Assembly: GCA_021157605.1 (NCBI GenBank)
Contig: JAGGWG010000006.1
Location: forward strand, 2,387-66,386
Source: a bacterium
GTDB lineage: Bacteria; Patescibacteriota; UBA1384; JAGGWG01
DNA length: 64,000 bases
Direction: 5' to 3'
This document shows positions 41,983 to 64,000 of the stretch, piece after piece (the first letter of the stretch is position 1; each line of letters opens with the position of its first letter). The notes under the pieces are model-generated. The model did no database searches. It saw nothing but the letters and a program-made list of their open reading frames with translations, and was not told the origin of the DNA. The translations under genes were made by a program, and so were the position numbers.

Positions 41983-42543
41983 ATGGCGGTTTTGGATCGG
42001 GCTGTGATTGTCGCCGGCAGGAGGATTCTGGCCGGGGACAAGAGGGTACTAATCAACAACCTCGTTATTTTCGAGAAAGGATCAAAGGGGTGGCACTTTG
42101 ACCCCAGCGGCTGGTTGCTTGCTGGGGAGGCAGGGGTGACGTCAGACGAGCTCTGGCACATACTCACCCATCCTCCATTCAATTTTCCTTTAGATTCCTG
42201 CTGGGACAACAAAAAATGCTCGGAGGATAAGTGTTGTAAGATTCCTCCGGGGCTGACAGAAAAAGAGTTCACCTCTTTTTTGGAGGCAGGCTACGATTGG
42301 GACCTTTTTGACTTTAGGACTTACATGGTCCGTCCTAGGAAAGGCGAGGACGGCTACTGCATTTTTCACAATTCAGAAGGAGGTTGCCAGCTCTTTGGCA
42401 GCCCCTTGCGCCCCCAGCAGTGCCGTTGGCGTTACTGCTGGGATGACGTTTTAGACAACGGGCCGGATCTGTCCCGTTACATTTTGAGCTGGTACCCACC
42501 GGCACCCTCAGATAGGGTGCGCCAGCGCTATAATCTAAGGTAA
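41983..42543 (+). CDS. YkgJ/UPF0153-family Cys-rich (CxxCxxCC-type) putative metal-binding protein, encoded in a G+C-rich patch
   Basis: The Cys pattern CWDNKKCSEDKCCK...GYCIFHNSEGGCQLFGSPLRPQQCRWRYC matches the YkgJ consensus C..C..CC ... C.IY..RP..CR..P. The preferred start is the ATG at 41983, which has a GAAGGAGGGG Shine-Dalgarno sequence 7 nt upstream. The track uses a TTG at 41962. Confidence 0.55.
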   Translation: MAVLDRAVIVAGRRILAGDKRVLINNLVIFEKGSKGWHFDPSGWLLAGEAGVTSDELWHILTHPPFNFPLDSCWDNKKCSEDKCCKIPPGLTEKEFTSFLEAGYDWDLFDFRTYMVRPRKGEDGYCIFHNSEGGCQLFGSPLRPQQCRWRYCWDDVLDNGPDLSRYILSWYPPAPSDRVRQRYNLR

Positions 42544-42578
42544 CCAAAGCAAAAGACCCTGCTTATTAGCAGGGTCTT

Positions 42579-43118
42579 TCAGTTTATTGATATTTCTGAT
42601 AAGTGCTCTCCCAAATTAACCACTGTATTAGCTTCTATCTCCAGCCAATAGTTAACAGGAGAGACAGAAGGTTCGGGTGAAGAGGATACATATGGAAATG
42701 GCAGATAAAACTCTGGAATTACTATTTCTACATTTGGATTGATGTTTTTGACCTCTTGAACACTTTCAACAAAATCGCCGTCCCGCGACATAAGAGCCAA
42801 CTTCTCTCCTTTAGACAGGGTTCGCCCCTTTTCTACAATTAGCTCTTTTATTTTTTGATCTACCCACGCATCTTTTTTTTCAAAAATAATAGAGTCCCTA
42901 TCTTTGAGAAAGGTTATAACACGTGGGTCACAAGAGATAGCATAAACAAAGCTCTTGTAAGCTTCACTTATAGGTTCTAAGGAAACATATAAGAACTCAA
43001 ACTTTTTTCCTACCAACAGTTCTGCCACCTTAATTATATCTAAGTTGCAGCCGCAGGTCTCCATTATCTCCCGCCGCCAGTAGTTCCAGTTGGGTCCGTC
43101 CACAATAACAACATTCAC
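42579..43118 (-). CDS. NYN-domain (LabA-like) predicted ribonuclease
   Basis: It has an N-terminal VVIVDGPNW and an MSRDGDFV (SxDxDF-like) motif. Confidence 0.55.
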   Translation of the reverse strand: MNVVIVDGPNWNYWRREIMETCGCNLDIIKVAELLVGKKFEFLYVSLEPISEAYKSFVYAISCDPRVITFLKDRDSIIFEKKDAWVDQKIKELIVEKGRTLSKGEKLALMSRDGDFVESVQEVKNINPNVEIVIPEFYLPFPYVSSSPEPSVSPVNYWLEIEANTVVNLGEHLSEISIN

Positions 43119-52666: not shown

Positions 52667-55663
52667 TTAATCTGAAGAACCAGCATCTTCAAACAAAAAT
52701 TGAGCTTGTTTTAAAGTAACCTGAGCAATGGGCTCAGCCTCCTGTGGCGGAATTCCCGATCGATAAAGAATCCTTTTAATTTTGCCTCTAATCCTAGCAA
52801 GCAACACGTCATTATTCGTCCAATCTACCGCCAGATCTTCTTTAATTGCCTGTACCACTTCCTTTGCTAACCGTCTCAATTCTTTATCCTCTTTTATATA
52901 CTTTTTCCCTTTTGTCAATGCGTCATAAAAAGCTAACTCTTCCTCACTCAAGCCTAATTTTTGCCCCTTTCTCTCTTCTGCTTTTATCTCCTTTGCCAAG
53001 TCAATCAACTTATCAATAGTTTCGGCAGAATCTATAAATTTCTTCTCATATTTCTCAATTACCTCTTCCAATCTTTCTCTAAGAGAGTCATACCGCACTA
53101 TATTTTTCCTTAATCGCGAATTAATTTCATCACTTAGCAATTTTCTTAATACTTGAATCGCCAAATTGGGGTAGGCCATCTGCTTTAGTCTTTTCAAAAA
53201 TTCTTCATCAAAGATCGAAACCTCCGGCTTTTTCTTGCCTTGCATCTCTAAGATATCTATTGGTTTGTCAGCTGCAATGCTCTCGGCAATCAGCTCTTTA
53301 ACTGTAGTTTCTATTTTCTGCTCCACCGTTAGTGGCCGAACAATTACTCTTTTAACAATATTTTTCTTAATCGCCTGAAAGAACTCTACTTCTTTTTGAA
53401 TTTTATCTGCTTCGGGATGGGGCCGAATAAAAGCCCACAATTTAAACAATGCTGTTGCCTCTTTTATAAAACGTTTTTGTTTTTCTTCATCAATTCTCCC
53501 TGTTTCTTCATCAGTAATAACTTTGTTAATCGCCCGCTGAAAGAGTCGAGCCAATTTCCTTCCTGGTAGCTTGTGCCAGCTTTTGTATCTCATCCCAGCA
53601 AAATAAGAACGAACGATATCGTATTTCTCGTGCATTCTCTCAATTAACTCCTCTAGAGGGATCAAGGCTTCTTTGACCTCTTTTTCACTATAGATGTTCA
53701 ATGCTTTCCTCAAATCATCCGCAATCCCAATATAATCAACGATTAAACCTCCCTGCTTATCCTTAAAAACCCTGTTCACTCTCGCAATCGCCTGCATCAA
53801 AGTATGGTTTTTCAAAGGCTTGTCCATATACATTGTGGCCAAGCAAGGCACATCAAACCCCGTCAACCACATATCGCAAACAATCACCATTTTGAGCGGA
53901 TCATCTGGATCCACAAATCTCTCTTTTAGCTGTTCCACATCCAAATCATCCTGAACCTTTCCTTTAAAATCAGTCAACCCGGAAACAGCCACTGCACACT
54001 CTGGAGCCTCAGGGTTTTTAGAAATTAGTTTATACATCTTGACCGCTACTTTTCGACTAATGGTCACCACCATCGCTTTTCCTTCAACTGCCCGATGGTT
54101 GAAATGCCAGACGATATCTCGGGCGATTTTCTCTAGCCGGTCAGGGTCACTGATCAGCTTTTCTAATCTGGAATACCTCTTCTTAAGTTCTTCTTTTGCC
54201 TCTGTATCTAAATTCGCCGTAAGATGGTCAAAATCTTCATCTATAAACTCGTTTGTTAAATGCAAAGGCACAAGTCTTCCTTCGTAATAGATAGGAACGA
54301 CTGCTTTATCTTCCACCGCTCTATCGATAGGATAAACACTAATATAATCTCCAAAAACCAACCTCGTATCTCTATCCCGAAGGCTGATTGGAGTCCCAGT
54401 AAAACCGAGAAAAGAAGCATTGGGCATTGCCTGACGAGCATTGCCTGCAAGTTTTGCGTATTGCGATCGATGAGCTTCGTCAGCAATAACAATTAGATTA
54501 TGCTTCTTAGAGAGAAGAGGGTATTTTTCTTCTTCACGCTCGGTCTCAAATTTTTGAATTGTGGTAAAGATTATGTCTCCACTTGCTCTTTTAAGTCTCT
54601 CTCGTAAATCTCTGATTGACTTTGCCTGTTTAGGAAAGAGGCCACACCTTTTAAACTTCTTAAAAAGTTGGTTGTCAAGATCGTTTCTGTCAGTCAAAAA
54701 TACAAAAGCTGGATTTTTAAGTTCTTTAAGTTGTCGTACTTTGTTCACATAAAAAATCATTGAAATAGATTTTCCCGAGCCTTGCGTGTGCCAAAAAACT
54801 CCAATGCGACCATCTCCTTTAGGCTTAACTTTTGTCTTTGTGGCTTCAATCGCTTTGTTCACCCCAAAGTATTGGTGATAAAGGGGCATCTTTTTGACAA
54901 AAGTGCTCCCTTCTTTCTCAAAAATGATGAAATTTTGAACGATATCTAAAAAACGAGCCTTGTGGAAAATGCCTTTAATCAAAACCTCAAGTTGGTTCAC
55001 TCCTTTTGTTTTTTCGTTTTCATTCTCAATTTTTTTCCAAACCGAGAACCATTCGCGGGTAGAACTAATTGTACCGTGCTTAGCTTCTAAAAGATCAGAA
55101 ATAACAATGACTTGATTGTATTTAAAGATATCGGGGATATCTTTTTTGTAACCTTTCATCACTTGATCGTAAGCATCATCGATTGTGGCATTTTCTGTAG
55201 CCGGGTTTTTGAATTCAAAAAGAGCCAAAGGCAAACCATTTACAAAGACTATGAGATCGGGCCGCCTTACTTTTTCTGTGCCTTGAACGGAAAATTGGTT
55301 AACGATTAAAAAGTCATTTCGCTCCGGCTGCTCAAAATCAATTAGCTTAACATAATCCCATTTTTCTTCGTCAATCTTGAGCGGTACACCCTGAATAAGC
55401 AGTCGGTAAAAGTTCTTGTTAGCAATTATAAGGTCCGGATGTTCGATTCGTTGAATTTCCTCAATCGTTTCTTCTATTGCTGCTTGAGGAATTCCCGGAT
55501 TCAAATTTACCAAAGCCTCTTTGAGCCTTCTTTCTAAAATTACCTGGCGATAATCTCTTCGTTCCAATACCAAATCTTTTGGACCAAAGGCATAATCATA
55601 CCCAAGGCTTTTAAACCACTCAATTGCTGGTTGTTCTGTTAGGGTTTGTTCGATTAGTTTCAT
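52667..55663 (-). CDS. hsdR: Type I restriction enzyme R subunit
   Basis: 998 aa. It has an N-terminal PD-(D/E)XK region, an SF2 helicase motif I (FWHTQGSGKS) and motif II VIADEAHRSQ. The C-terminal half is helical. Confidence 0.9.
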   Translation of the reverse strand: MKLIEQTLTEQPAIEWFKSLGYDYAFGPKDLVLERRDYRQVILERRLKEALVNLNPGIPQAAIEETIEEIQRIEHPDLIIANKNFYRLLIQGVPLKIDEEKWDYVKLIDFEQPERNDFLIVNQFSVQGTEKVRRPDLIVFVNGLPLALFEFKNPATENATIDDAYDQVMKGYKKDIPDIFKYNQVIVISDLLEAKHGTISSTREWFSVWKKIENENEKTKGVNQLEVLIKGIFHKARFLDIVQNFIIFEKEGSTFVKKMPLYHQYFGVNKAIEATKTKVKPKGDGRIGVFWHTQGSGKSISMIFYVNKVRQLKELKNPAFVFLTDRNDLDNQLFKKFKRCGLFPKQAKSIRDLRERLKRASGDIIFTTIQKFETEREEEKYPLLSKKHNLIVIADEAHRSQYAKLAGNARQAMPNASFLGFTGTPISLRDRDTRLVFGDYISVYPIDRAVEDKAVVPIYYEGRLVPLHLTNEFIDEDFDHLTANLDTEAKEELKKRYSRLEKLISDPDRLEKIARDIVWHFNHRAVEGKAMVVTISRKVAVKMYKLISKNPEAPECAVAVSGLTDFKGKVQDDLDVEQLKERFVDPDDPLKMVIVCDMWLTGFDVPCLATMYMDKPLKNHTLMQAIARVNRVFKDKQGGLIVDYIGIADDLRKALNIYSEKEVKEALIPLEELIERMHEKYDIVRSYFAGMRYKSWHKLPGRKLARLFQRAINKVITDEETGRIDEEKQKRFIKEATALFKLWAFIRPHPEADKIQKEVEFFQAIKKNIVKRVIVRPLTVEQKIETTVKELIAESIAADKPIDILEMQGKKKPEVSIFDEEFLKRLKQMAYPNLAIQVLRKLLSDEINSRLRKNIVRYDSLRERLEEVIEKYEKKFIDSAETIDKLIDLAKEIKAEERKGQKLGLSEEELAFYDALTKGKKYIKEDKELRRLAKEVVQAIKEDLAVDWTNNDVLLARIRGKIKRILYRSGIPPQEAEPIAQVTLKQAQFLFEDAGSSD

Positions 55664-55672
55664 TTTGCCTCA

Positions 55673-56911
55673 TTAGAAAAAATAAAAATACATCCCACTA
55701 ATCCAACACCTCTTTTGCCCTTCAAAATCTGGGCCGCAAAAAGGAAGGGTTCGAGAAGTGCTGTCATTCAAAAGAAAGGGTTTGGTAGGATAACGTAGTC
55801 CCGTCCCAATATTAGCCTCATTTTTGTAAACATTTGCTATATCATCACAGATCACCGCTAAAAAAGAAGCGAAGACAGTGTCATTATGAATCATTTTGTT
55901 TTTTTGGAAAATCTCAAAAAAAGTCTCTCCCTTTTCATTCTTTAAAAATTTCGACGCTTCAACACAAATGGTCACTCTGAAATCAGCTTGAAAATCTGCT
56001 TGCAATTGCTGCTGATACACAATGTTTGCTTTTCTCAAAATGGTTTTTAAAAGTCGGGGAGACATTGTTTGGGGAAATTCTTGAAAAAGGGCCATAAAGA
56101 AAGAAGCAAGTTGATCTTTGGCGGGCTTATATTCTTCATTTTCTAAAAAATCAGGATCAAAAATTTGTTCGATAAACTCTTCAAAATGTGAGATTTTGGG
56201 GTAGAAAAACTCTGCGTAGTCCAAAAACTTTAAATATCTCTGGGTCTCTTTCTGGAAGTTTTCACTACCTATGAGAGCAATGACTATAAATTTCTTTTTT
56301 AGATTTTCTCTGCACAAAATGTTTCTGATAAAGTAACTAAGAGTTTCGAGGAAAAAGAGTCCTTCTTCTCCTGAACGATCAGCATCTTCTATTATCAAAA
56401 AGAAATCTTGCCGCTTCAAAAGTTTCTTCGACCCTTCTAGGAACAACTTTTGAAATTCAACCATAGCTTCCGGGGGGAGTTCGCGAAACAGATCCAATAG
56501 TCCAGTTAATCCACCAAGACGGGCAGAAGACAAAATGGCTTTAAAAAGTTCAATAGCGAAATTTCGGCCACTTTTCCCTTTCATCTTCTTTTCCAAAAAA
56601 GATAACTCCGAAGTCTGTTGAACCATCTCTAACAACAGCCCCTCCCATAAAAGTTTTCTGTTGGGATAACTCCAAGCCTCAAACTTTATCCATTTTTCCT
56701 TTTTCGACCTTTTTCTTTTGTCCATTATTTGGTACAACATTGTGCTCTTACCTATACCATAAGGACCAATAAGACCTACTAGAGCTGGCTTATCGATTGA
56801 AGACAATTTTTGCTCAAAGGATCTGATATATTCTGAAAAATTTAAAAGATCCGGCACCTCGGGTGTCTCTTGAAGCAGTTTCAAGTTTTTAATAAAACCT
56901 TTTGTCTTCAT
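55673..56911 (-). CDS. KAP-family P-loop NTPase embedded between hsdS and hsdR
   Basis: It has the Walker A motif LIGPYGIGKST, the KAP-typical FEAWSYPNRKLLWEGLL and the Walker B motif FFLIIEDADRS. It starts 2 nt after the hsdS stop and stops 9 nt before hsdR. Confidence 0.6.
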   Translation of the reverse strand: MKTKGFIKNLKLLQETPEVPDLLNFSEYIRSFEQKLSSIDKPALVGLIGPYGIGKSTMLYQIMDKRKRSKKEKWIKFEAWSYPNRKLLWEGLLLEMVQQTSELSFLEKKMKGKSGRNFAIELFKAILSSARLGGLTGLLDLFRELPPEAMVEFQKLFLEGSKKLLKRQDFFLIIEDADRSGEEGLFFLETLSYFIRNILCRENLKKKFIVIALIGSENFQKETQRYLKFLDYAEFFYPKISHFEEFIEQIFDPDFLENEEYKPAKDQLASFFMALFQEFPQTMSPRLLKTILRKANIVYQQQLQADFQADFRVTICVEASKFLKNEKGETFFEIFQKNKMIHNDTVFASFLAVICDDIANVYKNEANIGTGLRYPTKPFLLNDSTSRTLPFCGPDFEGQKRCWISGMYFYFF

Positions 56912-56913
56912 GG

Positions 56914-58137
56914 CTATACCCTTATTTCCCCACTCATTAATTTAGGCAAAAGTAAATCGCGAAGAGACGATAAAAGTTGGTTTTCTTTTACATTCCGGAT
57001 AAGTTGTTTATAAAGGGGGAAGCACATTTTTTCGAAATGATTAAGCAGCTTCTTTGGAGGGAGAACAAAAGGCATTCTGCAAAGATCATCCCATTTTACC
57101 ACAGGCATCTTGGTCCCCGATGCGCATTTGGAAGCGAATTCTATTGTAGAAGCAGAGAATAAGAGAGAAATTGAAAATGAATATAACTCTCGCTTTCTAG
57201 GATAAATCACAAAAACTGATTGATTTGTGACACCATCGAAAGGTGCTATAACTACCTTGTGAAAATAAGGCCTTACGGCTCCGAAAAGAATATCCCCTTT
57301 GTAAAATCTAAATGCCGATGTCTTAATCTCTGCACCCTTACCAAAAGTGGAAACACTCAGACTTCGCCGAGGAAACCTCCCTAGATCAAGTAACTTTTCT
57401 CTCTTCCACTCCTCAAAGGTTTTAATTCTCTCCCTCCGTCGCTCTACGATCTCTCCCAACCTCTCTACTCTCCATCCTTCCGGAATTTTGCCTAATTCGC
57501 TGTCAACAAATTTCACTTTTTCCCAACCCGGGAATCTAAATTTCACAAACCACTCTTCAAAAATCGCCTGCGCCATTTCCTCCAGTGTCTGGTTAATCTT
57601 GTTGTTGAGCTCAATCTTCTCATCAAAAGCAGAAAGAATATCCGCAATGCGCTTTTGTTCGTTGAGGTCTTGGGGGATTGTTATTTCAAAGTTCTCAAAT
57701 TTGGATTTAGAAATATTCGTGTATACCGACCCACTATATTTTAACAATCGAGGTTTCACGTATTTAAAACAGTAATAAAGGAATTCGGGTAGAATTTTAT
57801 CTATATCGCAAATTACAGAATTGATTTGTTGATTAGTAAAGCTTTCCCTGCATGTTATTCCGACTTCTCCTACAGTAGCCAAACACGAAACCACAACAGC
57901 TTTGGGTGGCAACTTTAAATTTCTCATCGATTGTGCCCCTTTTTCTGAAAGAGTTCGCTCTGTTTTCTCTATGTAGCGCTGATTTTTTAGATCGGGAATG
58001 GTAATAAATGGGTAACGACCGCCGAAATTTCTTGGATCAGTAGTAGAAGGAGTTTTGCCTGTTATAACCTTCCCGATTTCTTTAATTTTCACGCTTTTCC
58101 ATTTTTTACTCTTGGAAAACATCTTTTCGTCCTCCAT
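56914..58137 (-). CDS. hsdS: Type I restriction-modification specificity subunit
   Basis: It has two target-recognition domains separated by conserved helical spacers (e.g. the IFEEWFVKFRFPGW and LRDLLLPKLMSGEI repeats). An alternative start at the MFSK codon (58122) has a better GGAGGA Shine-Dalgarno sequence. Confidence 0.85.
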   Translation of the reverse strand: MEDEKMFSKSKKWKSVKIKEIGKVITGKTPSTTDPRNFGGRYPFITIPDLKNQRYIEKTERTLSEKGAQSMRNLKLPPKAVVVSCLATVGEVGITCRESFTNQQINSVICDIDKILPEFLYYCFKYVKPRLLKYSGSVYTNISKSKFENFEITIPQDLNEQKRIADILSAFDEKIELNNKINQTLEEMAQAIFEEWFVKFRFPGWEKVKFVDSELGKIPEGWRVERLGEIVERRRERIKTFEEWKREKLLDLGRFPRRSLSVSTFGKGAEIKTSAFRFYKGDILFGAVRPYFHKVVIAPFDGVTNQSVFVIYPRKRELYSFSISLLFSASTIEFASKCASGTKMPVVKWDDLCRMPFVLPPKKLLNHFEKMCFPLYKQLIRNVKENQLLSSLRDLLLPKLMSGEIRV

Positions 58138-58169
58138 TTTTAATTTTTAACTTTATCCTCCACCAATTT

Positions 58170-59075
58170 TTATTTAAAAAGCTCCTCCAAGAAAATCCTA
58201 ATTTTAACTGCTGCACCTTCCACGTCTGACAATTGAATATTGATCGAGTATGAATGTTGAGCACTATCAATTAAAATTTTGTAATTCATTACCTCTTTGT
58301 AAATTCTTTTGTTGGAAAGCAACCTTTCCGCTTTCCCCAAGAGATTTTTTGTCTCTAAATACTGCCCCTTTTCATCTTTGACTTCTGACTCTTTGTTTAT
58401 TTGCTGGAACTTCCTCACAATAGAAAGAGGCAAAATTCTTCTTAAAATTAATATAGATGCTATTGGTCTTTTGTTGGCGAAATTAAAATTAAAATCATCA
58501 CACAATATTTTCAAATCTGGAGGTAGCTTTTTCACCAAGCTGTTTGGAAATAAATCTTTCTCAGTTCGACTGCTTCTTATTGTTGGTTTATCTTTAGTTT
58601 TGCTAATCGTCCAATCAAGAAGCTTATCACGCACAGCCTCTAAAACTGAAACTATCTGGCTTTGAGGGAAAAACATTGCAAACTCTGTCCGCATCTTAAC
58701 TGCTTGTGCAAGCATTTCTTGCATGGGTGGTGGATATTTAATTTGCAAGTAGTCTTCACTTTTATCAAGCAGGTTCTCAAGTTCGGGAATTGACTCAAAG
58801 ATGTGTTGTCGAGAAAGCAAATCTTGAGTTTTGTCGTCTTTGGGAAACATCACGGGTATCCATCGACCCAAAACAGGATTAAGTGCCTTGGGCTCACCTC
58901 TTATCAACCTATAGCTAGGTGGTTTGCCTGAACTGTAACCATTCATTTCGCGATCAATCCATTTTAAAAATTCTTTATCGCCCAATTCACTCGCCAGGAT
59001 CTTTGCCTTCCTTAATAACTCCGAAACTTTTGCTTCAGATTTAATGATCTCGTTTTTAAATTCCTGGATATCCAT
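58170..59075 (-). CDS. Hypothetical ~300-aa protein embedded between hsdM and hsdS (possibly Abi-like)
   Basis: I prefer the MDIQEF start at 59075 with a GAGGG Shine-Dalgarno sequence. The track starts at 59117 and would overlap the upstream gene by 32 nt. The N-terminal segment LKWIDREMNGY resembles abortive-infection (AbiTii-like) N-domains, but this is unverified. Confidence 0.4.
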   Translation of the reverse strand: MDIQEFKNEIIKSEAKVSELLRKAKILASELGDKEFLKWIDREMNGYSSGKPPSYRLIRGEPKALNPVLGRWIPVMFPKDDKTQDLLSRQHIFESIPELENLLDKSEDYLQIKYPPPMQEMLAQAVKMRTEFAMFFPQSQIVSVLEAVRDKLLDWTISKTKDKPTIRSSRTEKDLFPNSLVKKLPPDLKILCDDFNFNFANKRPIASILILRRILPLSIVRKFQQINKESEVKDEKGQYLETKNLLGKAERLLSNKRIYKEVMNYKILIDSAQHSYSINIQLSDVEGAAVKIRIFLEELFK

Positions 59076-59085
59076 ACTTCCCTCT

Positions 59086-59379
59086 TTATCTGATAACGAA
59101 AAATTTATAAATCTCAAAAAGCAAACTTGCTATAGCAATTAGCATTCCAATGCCCGCTATGATAACACCAGCTAAAGTGATTTTATTTAAGGCTTTTGTT
59201 AACTTCTCTGAAGAGGCGGTGGCCTTCTCGATATTCGAATTAAGGTTTTTTAGCTCTTCCTTAATCCTTCCCACTGTACGAAAAAAGCCTGAAGGCCAAG
59301 GTCTCACAGAGAAATAGGAAGTCAAAGTGTCCAAAAATTTCCGGATTTTTTCATAATCTTCTTCCTTAAATCTCATCAT
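59086..59379 (-). CDS. Small tail-anchored membrane protein (97 aa)
   Basis: It has a soluble helical N-terminus and a single C-terminal TM (ITLAGVIIAGIGMLIAIASLLF). There is a 4-nt ATGA overlap with the GIY-YIG stop. Confidence 0.35.
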   Translation of the reverse strand: MMRFKEEDYEKIRKFLDTLTSYFSVRPWPSGFFRTVGRIKEELKNLNSNIEKATASSEKLTKALNKITLAGVIIAGIGMLIAIASLLFEIYKFFVIR

Positions 59380-59681
59380 TTTCCTTTCTGTTCTTTATTA
59401 AATGGCGGTTTTCTTCTCCTAACAAGAAAAGTCTCTAGCCTTTTGGCTTCTTCTACAGAGTTAGTAAGAATCACTCCAAACTTTACCGCTTGCTGTTTCT
59501 GCTCTCGAATCTCCCGCACACTTTCCAAAATTCTTTTTGGCAAACGTCCTCTTTTCGCTCGCCCCACTTTTTGAAGTCGACCAGAACGAGTGAAGATCCC
59601 GTATACCCCCGGCTTGTCTTTGGGCAATTGTTTGAGAGTGACTTTGGTGATCTTTTTGATTGAAACAAATTTTTTACGCAT
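59376..59681 (-). CDS. Small stand-alone GIY-YIG nuclease domain protein (YhbQ-like, 101 aa)
   Basis: It has KPGVYGIF...GRLQKVGRAKRGRL...ILESVREI...VILTNSVEEAKRLETFLVRRRKPPFN. This places the GIY / Y(K)VG / Arg / Glu / Asn catalytic pattern in order. It overlaps the hsdM stop by 8 nt and has a GGGAG Shine-Dalgarno sequence. Confidence 0.6.
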   Translation of the reverse strand: MRKKFVSIKKITKVTLKQLPKDKPGVYGIFTRSGRLQKVGRAKRGRLPKRILESVREIREQKQQAVKFGVILTNSVEEAKRLETFLVRRRKPPFNKEQKGK

Positions 59682-61278
59682 TTTGTCTCCCTAAACGCTT
59701 TAAGTTATGCTTAATTTTTCTTTCTAGCTTCCTCGACTCCTTGAAATATTTTTCTAATTGCTTCGTCAATTTTTTCATCTTCTTCTCAAACGGTATGCCG
59801 TCGTCTTCTTCGGGCTTAATACCCACATATCTTCCCGGCGTCAAAACATAACCTGCTTTTCTAATTTCTTCGATAGTGACTGCCTTACAAAATCCTGGCT
59901 CATCCTTGTATTTTCCGGCTCCCTTTTCTCCCCGCCAAGCTCTAACAGTATCAGCGATTTTCTGAATCTGCTTGTCAGTGATCACATATTGTTTTCTGGA
60001 AATTGGCTCATACATTTCGCGCGCATCAATAAACAAAGTTTCACCACGACGGTCTCTAAATCTTTTATTTCTTTTGTCTTTGGTCAAAAACCAAAGAGAG
60101 ACCGGCAATGAAACGTTGTAGAAAAGTTTGGGCGGACAGGCAATAATTACGTCTACCAAATCATCTCTAATAATTCTTTTTCTAATTTCGCCTTCTTTGC
60201 CTCCCACAGCCAGGGCGCCATTTGCCATCACAAAACCAGCTACTCCGCCGGGAGCCAAGTGGTAAACAAAGTGCTGGATCCACATAAAGTTTGCGTTGCT
60301 GTTAGGAGGAAGACCATATTTGATCCTTGGATCTTTCTGAATTCTATCTGCGCCCCAATCTGAAAAGTTAAAGGGGGGATTGGAAATTACAATATCTGCT
60401 CGGAGATCAGGGAATTTGTCATTGTGGTAAGAATCGCCTTGTTCAACGTGGGCGATGATCCCTCTAATTGCCAAATTCATTTGGCAAAGCCGCCAGGTGG
60501 TTGAGTTTTTTTCTTGGCCATAAAAGTTTATTTTGCTGGGATCTTTTTTGTGCATTTCAATAAATTTTCTGCTTTGGATAAACATACCTCCGCTTCCGCA
60601 GGCTGGGTCAAAAACCCGACAGTTTTCATAGGGCTCCAAAATCTCTATCAGTAACTTTACTAAACATCGAGGCGTGTAGAATTCGCCACCTCTTTTGCCC
60701 TCTGCAGAAGCAAACTGACCAATGAAATACTCATAGATTCTTCCCAAGAGATCTTTGTCTTTTTCTTTTTGTTCTTGAATCTTGCTAAAGAGATTGATCA
60801 GCTCGCCTAGAATTCTGGGTTCTAAATCTCTGACTCGCGTGTACTCCACAAAAATTTTAGGCAGAACACCTTTTAGTTGAGGGTTTTCTTGTTCTATTAA
60901 TTCCATTGCCTTGTCTAGCTTACGAGCAATATCAGAGGAGGTAGCGTTTTCTTGAAGATAGGACCATCGGGCTTCTGGGGGAATATAAAAAATGCCCTGG
61001 CTAAGGTAAGAATCTTTGTCTTCAGTAATAGCTTCTCGAGCTTGAGGCGTAGGGGCGTAATAGGGGCTGTTTTTGTCTTGGGTGGCTTTTTCGAGAAATC
61101 TCTTTCGCTTATCAAAAGCCTCAGAAATGTATTTTAAAAAGATCAATCCCAAAACAATATGTTTGTATTCAGAGGCATCCATGCTGCCTCGCAGCTTGTC
61201 AGCTGCTTGCCAAAGTTGGTTTTCAAAATCGATGTCTTTCATTTCTGCTATCTTAGCAGATTTACCCCTAAAAATCAA
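59674..61278 (-). CDS. hsdM: Type I restriction-modification N6-adenine DNA methyltransferase subunit
   Basis: It has an N-terminal HsdM_N helix domain, the motif I region FDPACGSGGMF and motif IV NPPFNFSDW. Confidence 0.9.
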   Translation of the reverse strand: MIFRGKSAKIAEMKDIDFENQLWQAADKLRGSMDASEYKHIVLGLIFLKYISEAFDKRKRFLEKATQDKNSPYYAPTPQAREAITEDKDSYLSQGIFYIPPEARWSYLQENATSSDIARKLDKAMELIEQENPQLKGVLPKIFVEYTRVRDLEPRILGELINLFSKIQEQKEKDKDLLGRIYEYFIGQFASAEGKRGGEFYTPRCLVKLLIEILEPYENCRVFDPACGSGGMFIQSRKFIEMHKKDPSKINFYGQEKNSTTWRLCQMNLAIRGIIAHVEQGDSYHNDKFPDLRADIVISNPPFNFSDWGADRIQKDPRIKYGLPPNSNANFMWIQHFVYHLAPGGVAGFVMANGALAVGGKEGEIRKRIIRDDLVDVIIACPPKLFYNVSLPVSLWFLTKDKRNKRFRDRRGETLFIDAREMYEPISRKQYVITDKQIQKIADTVRAWRGEKGAGKYKDEPGFCKAVTIEEIRKAGYVLTPGRYVGIKPEEDDGIPFEKKMKKLTKQLEKYFKESRKLERKIKHNLKRLGRQNA

Positions 61279-61346
61279 TCTTGATTTTTGGAATAAATAT
61301 TGTGTAATTTGGGCTGGTTTTGGGGGTGAAAGTAGTGTTAGGGCTT

Positions 61347-61378
61347 AAAACAAAAACCTTCGCAAAGTATTGCGAAGG
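61347..61378 (-). terminator. Rho-independent terminator separating the zinc-ribbon genes from the hsdM operon
   Basis: A perfect 9-bp stem CCTTCGCAA / TTGCGAAGG with a 4-nt loop is followed on the minus strand by a U-rich run (plus AAAACAAAAA). Confidence 0.6.
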
Positions 61379-61391
61379 TGAATTGATTGGG

Positions 61392-61559
61392 TTAATCCTC
61401 TCTGCTGCTAGTGAGCTGCCCCCATTCTTTTTCTCCATAAACGACTTTTCCGCAACGGGGACAGCGGTAAACCACTGTTGTCAGGTTGTCCCTGACAGTA
61501 GTGGTTCCCCCTTTTTGGAGGAGAGTTTCACAATTTGGGCAGTGGTCATGATGATCCAT
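61392..61559 (-). CDS. 55-aa zinc-ribbon protein (CPNC...CPRC), not in the supplied ORF track
   Basis: My hand translation gives MDHHDHCPNCETLLQKGGTTTVRDNLTTVVYRCPRCGKVVYGEKEWGQLTSSRED. It lies in a G+C-rich patch and is the first of three tandem zinc-ribbon ORFs. Confidence 0.35.
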   Translation of the reverse strand: MDHHDHCPNCETLLQKGGTTTVRDNLTTVVYRCPRCGKVVYGEKEWGQLTSSRED

Positions 61560-61578
61560 ATCTTGCCTCCCCGGACTT

Positions 61579-61935
61579 TTAGTCTCCCGGCAGAAAAGGA
61601 TGGTTGCCTTTTTCTTCCACGGTCTCGATCAAAGTGATAATGATGACTATTGGTAATAAGAAGAGGTAAAGGCACATTCCTCCAAATTTCTGCAGAGCGA
61701 ATCTTATTCGCCATTCTGCGGGAGCAATGAGTCTGTTCCAAAAATACAGGCTCGCGCTGTAGCGAATTACTTGTTCCGGAGGTATTGCGAGTATTCTTCG
61801 CTCTATGACTTCCACGAAATGATGACACCGGTTACAAAAATAACGATTTACTTTGGTGTCTCCTGATTCTAGTATTGGTTCTACGAACTGCAAAAAGTTA
61901 TTGCACCGTTCACATCTTATTTCAGCACCTCTCAT
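61579..61935 (-). CDS. Zinc-ribbon protein with a hydrophobic C-terminal region (paralog A)
   Basis: It has CERC...CNRC, then LYFWNRLIAPAEW, then a C-terminal TM (LYLFLLPIVIIITLI). Confidence 0.45.
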   Translation of the reverse strand: MRGAEIRCERCNNFLQFVEPILESGDTKVNRYFCNRCHHFVEVIERRILAIPPEQVIRYSASLYFWNRLIAPAEWRIRFALQKFGGMCLYLFLLPIVIIITLIETVEEKGNHPFLPGD

Positions 61936-62282
61936 TTTAATACCTCCTCTTCTTCGTAATCGTTTTCGCGCGAGATGAGATCCATAACATAATCAACTGT
62001 AAACAAAGGCACAATGATAGAAAGGAGACCCAACTCCCTTATTTCTTCGAGGGCGAAAGATACCCCCCATGCCAAAGGAGCAACCAGCTTTCTCCAAAAA
62101 TAAAGTGTTGGGCCACACCTTTTTTGCTCTGTGAGAGTAAGATTGAGACCAGGATCGTACCACGATATTACCTCAACATATTCATTGCAATTGCCGCAAT
62201 AATAACGCTCAATGTCTTTGTCGTCGAGACTGAGTATAGTCTCGACGAATCGCAGTAACTTCCCGCATTTGTCGCACTTCAT
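61932..62282 (-). CDS. Zinc-ribbon protein with a hydrophobic C-terminal region (paralog B)
   Basis: It has CDKC...CGNC, then LYFWRKLVAPLAW, then a hydrophobic helix. It aligns colinearly with paralog A and overlaps it by 4 nt. Confidence 0.45.
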   Translation of the reverse strand: MKCDKCGKLLRFVETILSLDDKDIERYYCGNCNEYVEVISWYDPGLNLTLTEQKRCGPTLYFWRKLVAPLAWGVSFALEEIRELGLLSIIVPLFTVDYVMDLISRENDYEEEEVLK

Positions 62283-62355
62283 TATTGTGATACCCCCTTT
62301 TGGTAAAGTGCTTTTCTCACCATAGGAGAAACAGGGACAAAATGCAAGTTTATAG

Positions 62356-63165
62356 TCAGCTGGCTATATCCCGTTTAGAAAAAACTATAATGGCCAAGAG
62401 GGTAAAAAGTATTGCTACTCCCAGAAAAACCCAAACAGCCAAGTTTTCAATCTGATTATTAATTAGAGCTTGGCTGGGATCGTAATAATGGAAAAAAGAG
62501 AAGTATTTTGTCTTGTTCCATTCGTTTTTTAGGGAAGAGACAATGTTGACTACATACATTGCTACAATAATAGCTACAGAGACAAAATAGACCTTTCCTT
62601 TTTCAGAAAATAAAGCAGAAAAAAACATAGCTAAACTAAAGGTTGCCCAACCTAATAAAAAGCCAACAATAGCCAAACTTAAATAATGGGAAGTTTGGAA
62701 CTCTATATTATAAAGAGAGGCCAAAGGGATAGCTGAAAAAATAGAAATAGCGGTAAAAACTATCAGGGCTGAAATGCCTGATAAGTATTTAGCCAAAAAG
62801 ATTTTGAGGCGGGATATGGGCTGGGATAACAAAATCTCAATAGTCTTTTTTTCTATTTCTCCGGCAATTGAGGAGCCTGCCCAAGAAATAGTTAAAGCAA
62901 AGAGCATTATCGGCCAAACAAAGCTAAACTGCTCTACAGACAGAAAGTTTTCCAGCTTGGTAAAAGAAAGCTCAGGAGATTCAATATCAAAAGCCTTAAG
63001 TAAGGATTCCGGATAAGTCTTCATTAGTTCTTGCAACTGTTGCGCCTGTTCCTTGATCGAGGGAAAGAGAGCGACATACATCCATAGAAGGAGAATTCCG
63101 GCTAAACAGTAAGCCAAAATAGTGTATTTTCTATCTTTAATTGTGCGCCAGAATAAAGCAAGCAT
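62356..63165 (-). CDS. ABC-2 family transporter permease
   Basis: 269 aa with six hydrophobic helices. It is adjacent to an ABC ATPase. Confidence 0.55.
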   Translation of the reverse strand: MLALFWRTIKDRKYTILAYCLAGILLLWMYVALFPSIKEQAQQLQELMKTYPESLLKAFDIESPELSFTKLENFLSVEQFSFVWPIMLFALTISWAGSSIAGEIEKKTIEILLSQPISRLKIFLAKYLSGISALIVFTAISIFSAIPLASLYNIEFQTSHYLSLAIVGFLLGWATFSLAMFFSALFSEKGKVYFVSVAIIVAMYVVNIVSSLKNEWNKTKYFSFFHYYDPSQALINNQIENLAVWVFLGVAILFTLLAIIVFSKRDIAS

Positions 63166-63166
63166 T

Positions 63167-64000
63167 TTATTTTTTATTTTTGTAAAATTCTAAAAATATC
63201 TCTTCCAGTGAAGCTTGAGCAATCTCTATATTTTTCAACCGATAACGGGCGAGTTTTTTAAGCAAAGGGTTGATGTCTTCTTTGATTTGCAAAATCAAAC
63301 TCTCTGAATTTTGGTGAATAATTTTTGTGTTTTTCAGCTGAAAGTCCTCTTTCTTAAAGGTTGAATCAAAATTAATTTTTGCCTGATAGATTTTCCTTTT
63401 CTTCAAATCAGCAATAGTTTCTGTAGCAATAAGTTTCCCTTTTTTAATAATTCCTACCCGCGTGCAGACATTTTCTACTTCATGAAGGTTGTGGGAAGAC
63501 ATAAAAATTGTGCTTCCATTTTGTTGGAGTTCTCTTAAAATTCCGTAGATTGTATTTTGCAAAAGAGGGTCAAGACCGGCTGTCGGCTCATCTAAAATGA
63601 TTACTTTTGGCTGGTGCATTAAAGCGAGAATGAGGTTTAATTTTTGTTTGTTGCCAGTAGAAAGAGTTTTGACTTTAGGTAAAGGATTAAAATCCAATTT
63701 TTTTATCAGCTTATCGCGCAGAGGCGCTTTGCCTTTAATTTTTTCCAAAAGATTGATGTGTTCATAGCCGTTCCAATTGTCATAAAGCTCGGCTTCACTT
63801 GATAGATAACCGACATATTTTTTAAGTTGGACAGATTCTTCTTGGGCGTCGTAATTTAAAATTTTAATAGAGCCTGCAGTGGGAGAAACAAAATTCATCA
63901 TACACCTGATAGTGGTAGTTTTGCCTGCTCCATTTGGGCCCAGAAAGCCGAAGATCTCTCCTTTTTTAACAACAAAAGAGATGCCGTCTATTGCTTTGAT
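63167..64000 (-). CDS. ABC transporter ATP-binding protein (5' end beyond window)
   Basis: The Walker A motif GPNGAGKTT is found by reverse translation of 63925-63951. The signature LSTGNKQKLNL, the Walker B motif VIILDEPTAGLD and an H-loop are present. The C-terminal ~90 aa form an accessory domain. Confidence 0.85.
   Translation of the reverse strand: MKAIDGISFVVKKGEIFGFLGPNGAGKTTTIRCMMNFVSPTAGSIKILNYDAQEESVQLKKYVGYLSSEAELYDNWNGYEHINLLEKIKGKAPLRDKLIKKLDFNPLPKVKTLSTGNKQKLNLILALMHQPKVIILDEPTAGLDPLLQNTIYGILRELQQNGSTIFMSSHNLHEVENVCTRVGIIKKGKLIATETIADLKKRKIYQAKINFDSTFKKEDFQLKNTKIIHQNSESLILQIKEDINPLLKKLARYRLKNIEIAQASLEEIFLEFYKNKK

Follow-up and report, generated by a model that had tools for sequence, protein, structure and literature searches.

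Between a transporter operon and a restriction-modification island of a Patescibacteriota metagenome-assembled genome (MAG) lie three small, adjacent open reading frames (ORFs), and the question that this locus raises is whether they are genes, how they are related to each other and what they might do together. They occupy positions 61392-62282 of a 64,000-nt stretch of contig JAGGWG010000006.1; this whole stretch is referred to here as the window. The ORFs are read from the minus strand and are named B, A and C in the order of their transcription, and all three encode a CxxC-x22-CxxC motif. On balance, we favour the reading that they constitute a co-expressed, lineage-restricted cassette, in which A and B would be membrane-tethered zinc-ribbon adaptors and C their soluble, ribbon-only partner. 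On one side it is flanked by an SdpI-like/ABC-2 exporter operon and on the other by the predicted promoter of a restriction-modification island that is subject to exchange.

Gene B (61932-62282, 116 aa; NCBI protein MCD6194736.1) overlaps with its TGA the ATG of gene A (61579-61935, 118 aa) in the sequence ATGA, and a gap of 19 nt separates the end of A from the start of gene C (61392-61559, 55 aa). A GGGGAGG Shine-Dalgarno sequence (61566-61572, minus strand) lies 6 nt 5' of the ATG of C, and strong ribosome-binding sites and tight packing can be read from the sequence for the B-A-C unit as a whole. Downstream of C, an intrinsic terminator is present at 61346-61379 on the minus strand, composed of a 10-bp stem (61356-61379) and a T-run (TTTTTGTTTT); it closes the B-A-C transcript and probably that of the upstream ABC genes, too, and insulates the cluster from hsdM, as had been predicted. 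The most informative relative of the locus comes from a JGI metagenome (locus L005). Window and L005 show 93.6% identity over 2770 nt and have the same gene order, i.e., SdpI/DUF1648 protein, ABC ATPase, ABC-2 permease, B, A, C and terminator; the Shine-Dalgarno sequence of C is kept and the terminator is identical. Gene C is called in ENA and JGI assemblies. The NCBI protein set contains the exact sequence of B only, as "hypothetical protein J7K05_00815 [bacterium]", with the exact sequences of A and C being absent; in the NCBI record of this MAG, C and possibly also A seem to be unannotated or annotated with other boundaries.

The ratio of nonsynonymous to synonymous substitution rates (dN/dS) against L005 is 0.20 for A and 0.16 for B, and 0.16 for A against a second allele of this gene (locus L002); A and B are under purifying selection. 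The tail of B carries a 6-nt indel in locus L001 which is in frame and, thus, respects the reading frame. For C, conservation in a relative had been named as one of two points on which the original prediction would stand or fall; in L005, the protein is 91% identical, with the length of the ORF and all four Cys preserved. The 10 nucleotide differences are confined to five codons, and the resulting replacements (H4Y, D5S, R35K by CGT→AAA at all three bases, V39I and V40I) are conservative; only 0.3% of random sets of 10 substitutions that keep the ORF and the Cys do so at an equally low BLOSUM cost. The alternative that C is non-coding, with the G+C-rich patch it occupies being a structured 3' region or a plus-strand terminator that contains an ORF by chance, could draw on an exceptionally stable hairpin (described below), which is terminator-like on the plus strand with the tail CCCCCTTTTT, on a nominal dN/dS of 0.79, which means little because it derives from 10 changes only, and on the missing exact C sequence in the NCBI protein set. 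Against this stand the ribosome-binding site at ideal spacing, the two canonical CPxC knuckles, the ORF length and Cys kept in L005, the conservative codon pattern, a likeness to the A/B ribbon that extends beyond the cysteines and the lack of an Rfam match, so that we regard a non-coding C as highly improbable. Taken together, the dN/dS values of A and B, the frame-respecting indel and the codon pattern of C argue that B, A and C are three real, translated genes.

According to the original prediction, the three proteins are zinc-ribbon paralogs. For A and B this stands, with 29% identity over 109 aa in BLASTP (E=1e-22), and they have in common both the predicted LYFW(N/R)(R/K)L(I/V)AP segment and a hydrophobic helix at the C-terminus; judged from their sequences, the two proteins are tandem paralogs. 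Between C and either of them, pairwise BLASTP gives no significant similarity (E=0.08-0.09), and the relationship of C emerges at the level of profiles: hhalign of C against eight members of the A/B family gives a probability of 85% (E=6e-6) over 38 gapless columns, with all four Cys aligned. When C was shuffled with its Cys fixed, the shuffles scored 13.9 on average (sd 3.6), and 0/300 attained the 33.2 of the real sequence; therefore, the similarity goes beyond the cysteines. The motif is located at C8/C11/C34/C37 in A, C3/C6/C29/C32 in B and C7/C10/C33/C36 in C. Because C consists of the ribbon only (CPNC...CPRC), as had been claimed, has the same x22 spacing and is similar to A/B at the profile level, its origin by duplication with domain loss appears plausible.

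The A/B proteins have few relatives. A HMMER profile search of 1.84 billion representative proteins retrieved only three further ones, P0005, P0006 and P0008 (112-131 aa); two eukaryotic repeat proteins that were also matched were rejected as false positives. Word-indexed homology searches with A, an A/B profile and a C profile returned the same lineage and L005 only, and patterns of A/B or C, when run against GTDB genomes, JGI metagenomes and IMG/VR, retrieved no relatives, viral ones included. P0005 (locus L011, 260-775) is listed at 171 aa by reading through a TGA codon, while the standard bacterial code gives 114 aa, and a terminator-like hairpin follows the 114-aa gene; the 57 additional residues are spurious and stem from the genetic code that the gene caller applied. 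Invariant in the eight family members are C8, C11, L15, E19, R31, C34, C37, E42, P72 and W75. P0005, P0006 and P0008 are encoded by single genes, either beside a HAD hydrolase and an AsnC regulator or beside DnaG, and neither ABC nor defence genes adjoin them; therefore, the arrangement as a trio is not a property of the family. By these sequence comparisons, A/B represents a very rare, unnamed family of ~115 aa.

A zinc ribbon is expected to contain two Cys-x2-Cys knuckles, ~15-30 residues apart, which is the case in A, B and C, and a β-hairpin or sheet around them, which is predicted by the AlphaFold2 model of A. This model has a mean predicted local distance difference test score (pLDDT) of 77.9, rising to 87-93 over residues 11-40, and places strands at residues 16-24, 27-34, 39-46 and 54-60, followed by helices at 61-83 and 87-111. 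Helix 61-83 is basic and moderately amphipathic and contains the invariant P72/W75 pair (P-x-x-W). A hydrophobic C-terminal helix is found in all members of the A/B family at residues ~80-103 of 112-131, with KD19 maxima of 2.55 in A, 1.80 in B, which is marginal, and 2.65-2.95 in the distant members; together with the soluble N-terminal domain, this suggests an architecture of the tail-anchored type. B is composed of the zinc ribbon, the LYFWRKLVAPLAW helix, the weakly hydrophobic C-terminal helix and an acidic tail. The ribbon of A/B would, thus, presumably be cytoplasmic and tethered via the juxtamembrane helix and the C-terminal anchor. The membrane topology is uncertain because the tails are acidic in A and B and basic in the distant members. 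C comprises the ribbon only (CPNC...CPRCG), is predicted to be soluble and has a His-rich N-terminus, MDHHDH (61542-61559, codons 1-6), which directly precedes CPNC; H3 and H6 are kept in L005 (MDHYSH), and these His residues may serve as additional metal ligands.

None of the models of Pfam, NCBIfam, PHROG and PADLOC reached its cut-off on A, B or C, and none of Pfam did so on any of the eight A/B family members. The best Pfam/NCBIfam scores were 19.7-20.2 bits for C (cut-offs 24-29) and 15-17 bits for A/B (cut-offs 25-27), and the sub-threshold matches in these four collections are all generic zinc ribbons. Likewise, fold matches were not informative, the weak ones being all of the zinc-ribbon type. 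LITAF-like proteins (PF10601) are matched by C over residues 24-41 only, with 19.7 bits against a cut-off of 23.8, and while such proteins need a hydrophobic, membrane-inserting segment between the knuckles, that of C is polar (TLLQKGGTTTVRDNLTTVVY). A literature search on tail-anchored zinc-ribbon proteins retrieved nothing relevant.

If A and B are indeed membrane-tethered adaptors and C their soluble partner, A and B would sit together in the membrane with their ribbons at the inner face, where these would capture a partner that could be a protein or a nucleic acid, with C pairing with A/B or competing with them for that partner; the trio would then act as a small membrane-sequestration or adaptor module. 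Several points weigh against this proposal. The genomic context points to no partner for A, B and C, and the distant members of the family are single genes in unrelated contexts, i.e., the trio is not family-wide. Part of the resemblance between C and A/B could stem from what all zinc ribbons share, the structural model of C is of low confidence (pLDDT 62.8), albeit with the strand pattern of A, and only one relative of C is informative. Furthermore, the C-terminal helix of B is only marginally hydrophobic, and the difference in tail charge between A/B and the distant members leaves the topology uncertain. In terms of novelty, the trio is an orphan small-protein cassette, moderately novel as a family, and not a new system.

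Gene C lies in a patch that had been noted for its high G+C content, and this is borne out by a value of 0.505 at 61392-61591 versus 0.381 in the window, corresponding to the 99.4th percentile of 200-nt windows. The patch is simply the coding sequence of C with a hairpin superimposed on it. A chimeric assembly had been raised as a possible cause; the patch is, however, contained in three ENA assemblies from different samples, where it is identical, and in a JGI assembly, where it is 94% identical, and because four independent assemblies contain it, it is not a chimera. The inverted repeat within the patch is near-perfect as originally described, but not a perfect stem, and is located at 61470-61506 instead of 61476-61508: it covers codons 18-31 of C (GTTTVRDNLTTVVY) with 16-nt arms, complementary at 14/16 positions, and a 5-nt loop. 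Folded as RNA, it reaches -27.1 kcal/mol (z=-5.5) and is the most stable 45-nt window of the whole 64 kb. In synonymous-codon shuffles of C that keep protein and codon usage, the minimum 42-nt energy is -12.4 +/- 1.9 kcal/mol in comparison to the observed -23.1 kcal/mol, and 0/100 shuffles are as stable; therefore, the hairpin is imposed by the choice of codons and not by the peptide. The 39 nt of the hairpin are identical in L005, while the remaining 129 nt of C carry all 10 changes (estimated p ~0.05), which is only suggestive of a conservation above that of the rest of the gene. As a guess, the hairpin might work as an RNA element that affects the stability or processing of the transcript or makes ribosomes pause.

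A second hairpin is found in B (62221-62248; codons 12-21, FVETILSLDD), with a perfect 11-bp stem and a 6-nt loop; only four perfect stems of the window, this one included, reach 10 bp or more. Against synonymous-codon shuffles it is marginal, with 3/100 for the window and 10/100 for L005. It is located at about the same place of the ribbon as the C hairpin and is kept in L005, where a C-to-T change replaces a G-C pair by G-U. The genes of the distant homologs have, at the corresponding position, no hairpins beyond the expectation from synonymous shuffles. Rfam gave no match at gathering score over the whole window and no credible one at E<=1 within 61200-62400, where a sub-threshold plant-miRNA match was rejected.

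The cassette differs from its upstream neighbours in its divergence. Between the window and L005, nucleotide identity is 82.7% for A, 92.4% for B and 96-97% for the ABC genes, with dS values of 0.65, 0.21 and 0.10-0.15, respectively, and dN values of 0.04-0.10 for A/B versus 0.012-0.013 for the ABC genes. L002 equals the window over 978 nt, comprising the 3' end of the permease gene, the gap and B, and from the first codons of A onwards drops to 88.7%; this divergent A allele (L002 975-1328 versus window 61579-61935) has the dN/dS of 0.16 given above. Both alleles occur in one sample, ERZ23499504, which holds the L002 allele and that of L001, the latter being 99.7% identical to the window. The synonymous excess and the sharp breakpoint at the B/A junction therefore indicate allele exchange by recombination and not positive selection, and the A/B mosaic is the result of recombination beside an island-exchange hotspot. 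Of the rapid evolution that had been proposed for the family, the faster divergence of A/B relative to their neighbours holds true, while positive selection does not (dN/dS 0.16-0.20).

On the other side of the cassette, the homology between the window and L005 reaches from the window end to 61235, stopping exactly at the start of hsdM, and beyond this boundary (61235-61242) the two share nothing. The island of the window (52667-61278) contains the type I genes hsdM, hsdS and hsdR, between which AbiTii and a KAP-type P-loop NTPase are encoded, whereas that of L005 (11085-20387) contains a type III system together with DUF3800 and a Shedu-like SduA_C gene; the locus is a defence-island swap hotspot. 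The last stretch of the shared flank contains a promoter-like TTGATT-17-TAAGAT and the palindrome CTGCTAagaTAGCAG. Neither this palindrome nor that of C has further copies in the window and the loci compared; therefore, they represent neither a repeat family nor an island-flanking repeat.

Given the vicinity of the transporter genes, the three proteins might serve the SdpI-like/ABC-2 exporter as accessory or regulatory subunits that are co-transcribed with it and act on its permease. As had been stated, the cluster adjoins an ABC-2 transporter: on the same strand, an ABC-2 family permease is encoded upstream at 62356-63165 (Pfam ABC2_membrane_2, E=8e-18) and an ABC ATPase with intact Walker A at 63167-64000, with this gene continuing beyond the window end. 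Only 73 nt separate the permease from the start of B, the gap contains no terminator-like site or strong promoter match, the only terminator follows C, and the order SdpI-like, ATPase, permease, B, A, C is kept in L005. A general co-occurrence with ABC-2 transporters, which had been proposed as a check, was not found. In a set of 83 loci with permeases 37-60% identical to that of the window, mostly from MAGs of Patescibacteria and Saccharibacteria, A/B or C homologs are encoded at 0/83 orthologous permease loci, and a comparable small zinc-ribbon gene occurs at 0/55 loci that extend downstream from the permease by 700 nt or more; apart from the window, trio and transporter occur together only in L005. 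The origin of these permeases makes it likely that the window stems from an uncultivated bacterium of the Patescibacteria type. Since the distant A/B homologs are encoded elsewhere and not beside ABC genes, the association is specific to one lineage. Considering also the G+C content of the cassette (0.42-0.49 versus 0.381 in the window), an exporter function is unlikely.

The opposite neighbour invites the interpretation that the cassette belongs to the defence hotspot, be it as a membrane effector or sensor, as a toxin-antidote set, or with C as a Com-like regulator of restriction-modification. In its favour, cassette, terminator and promoter are conserved up to the first base of the exchanged islands (type I in the window, type III in L005), A/B show the mosaic divergence, with two A alleles 11% apart in one sample and the breakpoint at the B/A junction, and C has weak Com-like matches (PF10122, 17.4 bits, E=0.0031; PHROG "translational regulator", E=0.0012). 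Com of phage Mu is a zinc-finger protein that binds a stem-loop in its target mRNA and thereby activates translation of the mom modification gene, and C resembles it in being a small four-Cys protein encoded beside a DNA methyltransferase gene. The PF10122 match, however, falls short of the 22.9-bit cut-off and belongs to a group of 53 zinc-ribbon matches that are all equally weak, the Cys spacing is x16 in Mu Com versus x22 in C, a terminator lies between C and the promoter of hsdM, and C stays constant while the type of the neighbouring restriction-modification system changes. PADLOC assigned A and B to 0 families and matched C only once and below threshold (13 bits, E=0.004), in the zinc-finger tail of a model with 845 positions; no toxin or antitoxin Pfam family was matched either, leaving the toxin-immunity pairs suggested originally without positive evidence. 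The distant homologs are located away from defence genes, viral relatives were not found, and an extra divergence beside the island is expected from island exchange by flanking recombination. A defence function is, hence, quite improbable. A combined version, in which the trio would be a regulatory or defence module that sequesters and releases a nucleic-acid or protein target, with A/B as tethered ribbons, C as their free antagonist and the C and B hairpins as RNA operators, and that acts on any restriction-modification or defence genes inserted behind the conserved downstream promoter, is very unlikely. The least probable of all, to the point of being barely tenable, is the anti-sigma interpretation of the original prediction, according to which A/B would be membrane-bound zinc-binding anti-sigma factors (ZAS). 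With these, A/B have in common only the general layout, in which a zinc site at the N-terminus precedes a membrane helix, whereas the H-x3-C-x2-C motif is absent, zf-HC2 gives no match even at E<=1, the N-terminal domain is predicted to be all-β and not a helical anti-sigma domain, and no sigma-factor Pfam family occurs among the L005 genes within 10 kb on either side (the window itself ends at 64000); the interpretation fails on motif, fold and gene context.

The favoured reading of B, A and C as membrane-tethered adaptors with a soluble partner can be compared with other zinc-ribbon proteins. With generic zinc ribbons (Zn_ribbon_3, DZR and those of the TFIIS/NrdR/Ogr-Delta type), the proteins share two CxxC knuckles flanking a β-hairpin or a three- to four-stranded sheet; unlike these, the A/B ribbon is fused to the P-x-x-W helix and a membrane helix, a combination with five occurrences among the 1.84 billion representatives. 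C, in turn, resembles CPxCG-type zinc-finger mini-proteins (Brz, the Haloferax HVO_2753 family, NblD) in being <=70 aa long, predicted to be soluble and equipped with CPxC/CPxCG knuckles and nothing else. Such proteins, e.g., Brz of Halobacterium (PMC2253796) and the cyanobacterial NblD (PMC7865187), act by binding a partner protein or nucleic acid. C has, however, no significant sequence relationship to them (NCBIfam HVO_2753, 14.9 bits versus a cut-off of 80), is bacterial and is found in a trio with membrane-anchored relatives. By analogy, not homology, the A/B proteins may also be likened to the haloarchaeal CdpC, which anchors FtsZ1 to the membrane via zinc fingers and an amphipathic helix (bioRxiv 10.64898/2026.07.16.738847); the principle of a zinc ribbon and an amphipathic helix tethering a cytoplasmic partner would be the same, whereas CdpC is much larger and has a second zinc finger as well as a disordered linker, but no transmembrane helix.

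Should the predicted architecture be true, an uncatalogued and extremely rare family, composed of ribbon, P-x-x-W helix and membrane anchor, would be added to the small zinc-ribbon proteins known from uncultivated bacteria, probably of the Patescibacteria type. The trio would then provide a clean natural case of a ribbon-only paralog beside its membrane-anchored relatives, bearing on competition or partner-switching, and C exemplifies how a real, conserved 55-aa gene can escape notice because of length cut-offs and be overlooked in at least one public annotation. Its hairpin is a tidy case of a nucleic-acid structure imposed on a coding sequence via synonymous codon choice. Long-standing open questions are not addressed by the trio.

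Some further features of the surrounding sequence are worth recording. The promoter of hsdM (TTGATT-17 nt-TAAGAT; 61240-61278, minus strand) is predicted from sequence only; the ATG of hsdM (start ~61242) lies 7 nt past TAAGAT, so close after the -10 element that the transcript looks leaderless. Two apparent variants of hsdM were rejected as runs of N from scaffolding, namely a shortened version of 490 aa in L001, with an apparent 132-nt deletion at window ~60091-60232 (N-run at L001 1758-1767), and a version split into 380 + 161 aa in L003, at window ~60215 (N-run at about L003 3020). At a distance from the cassette, the most G+C-rich stretch of the window (0.58 versus 0.38) is found at 41984-42543 on the plus strand, where a Cys-rich ORF of ~186 aa, which has GGAGG as its strong ribosome-binding site, is followed by a perfect 12-bp terminator stem (42552-42579). 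This ORF is without a match in Pfam and Rfam and may have been acquired horizontally.

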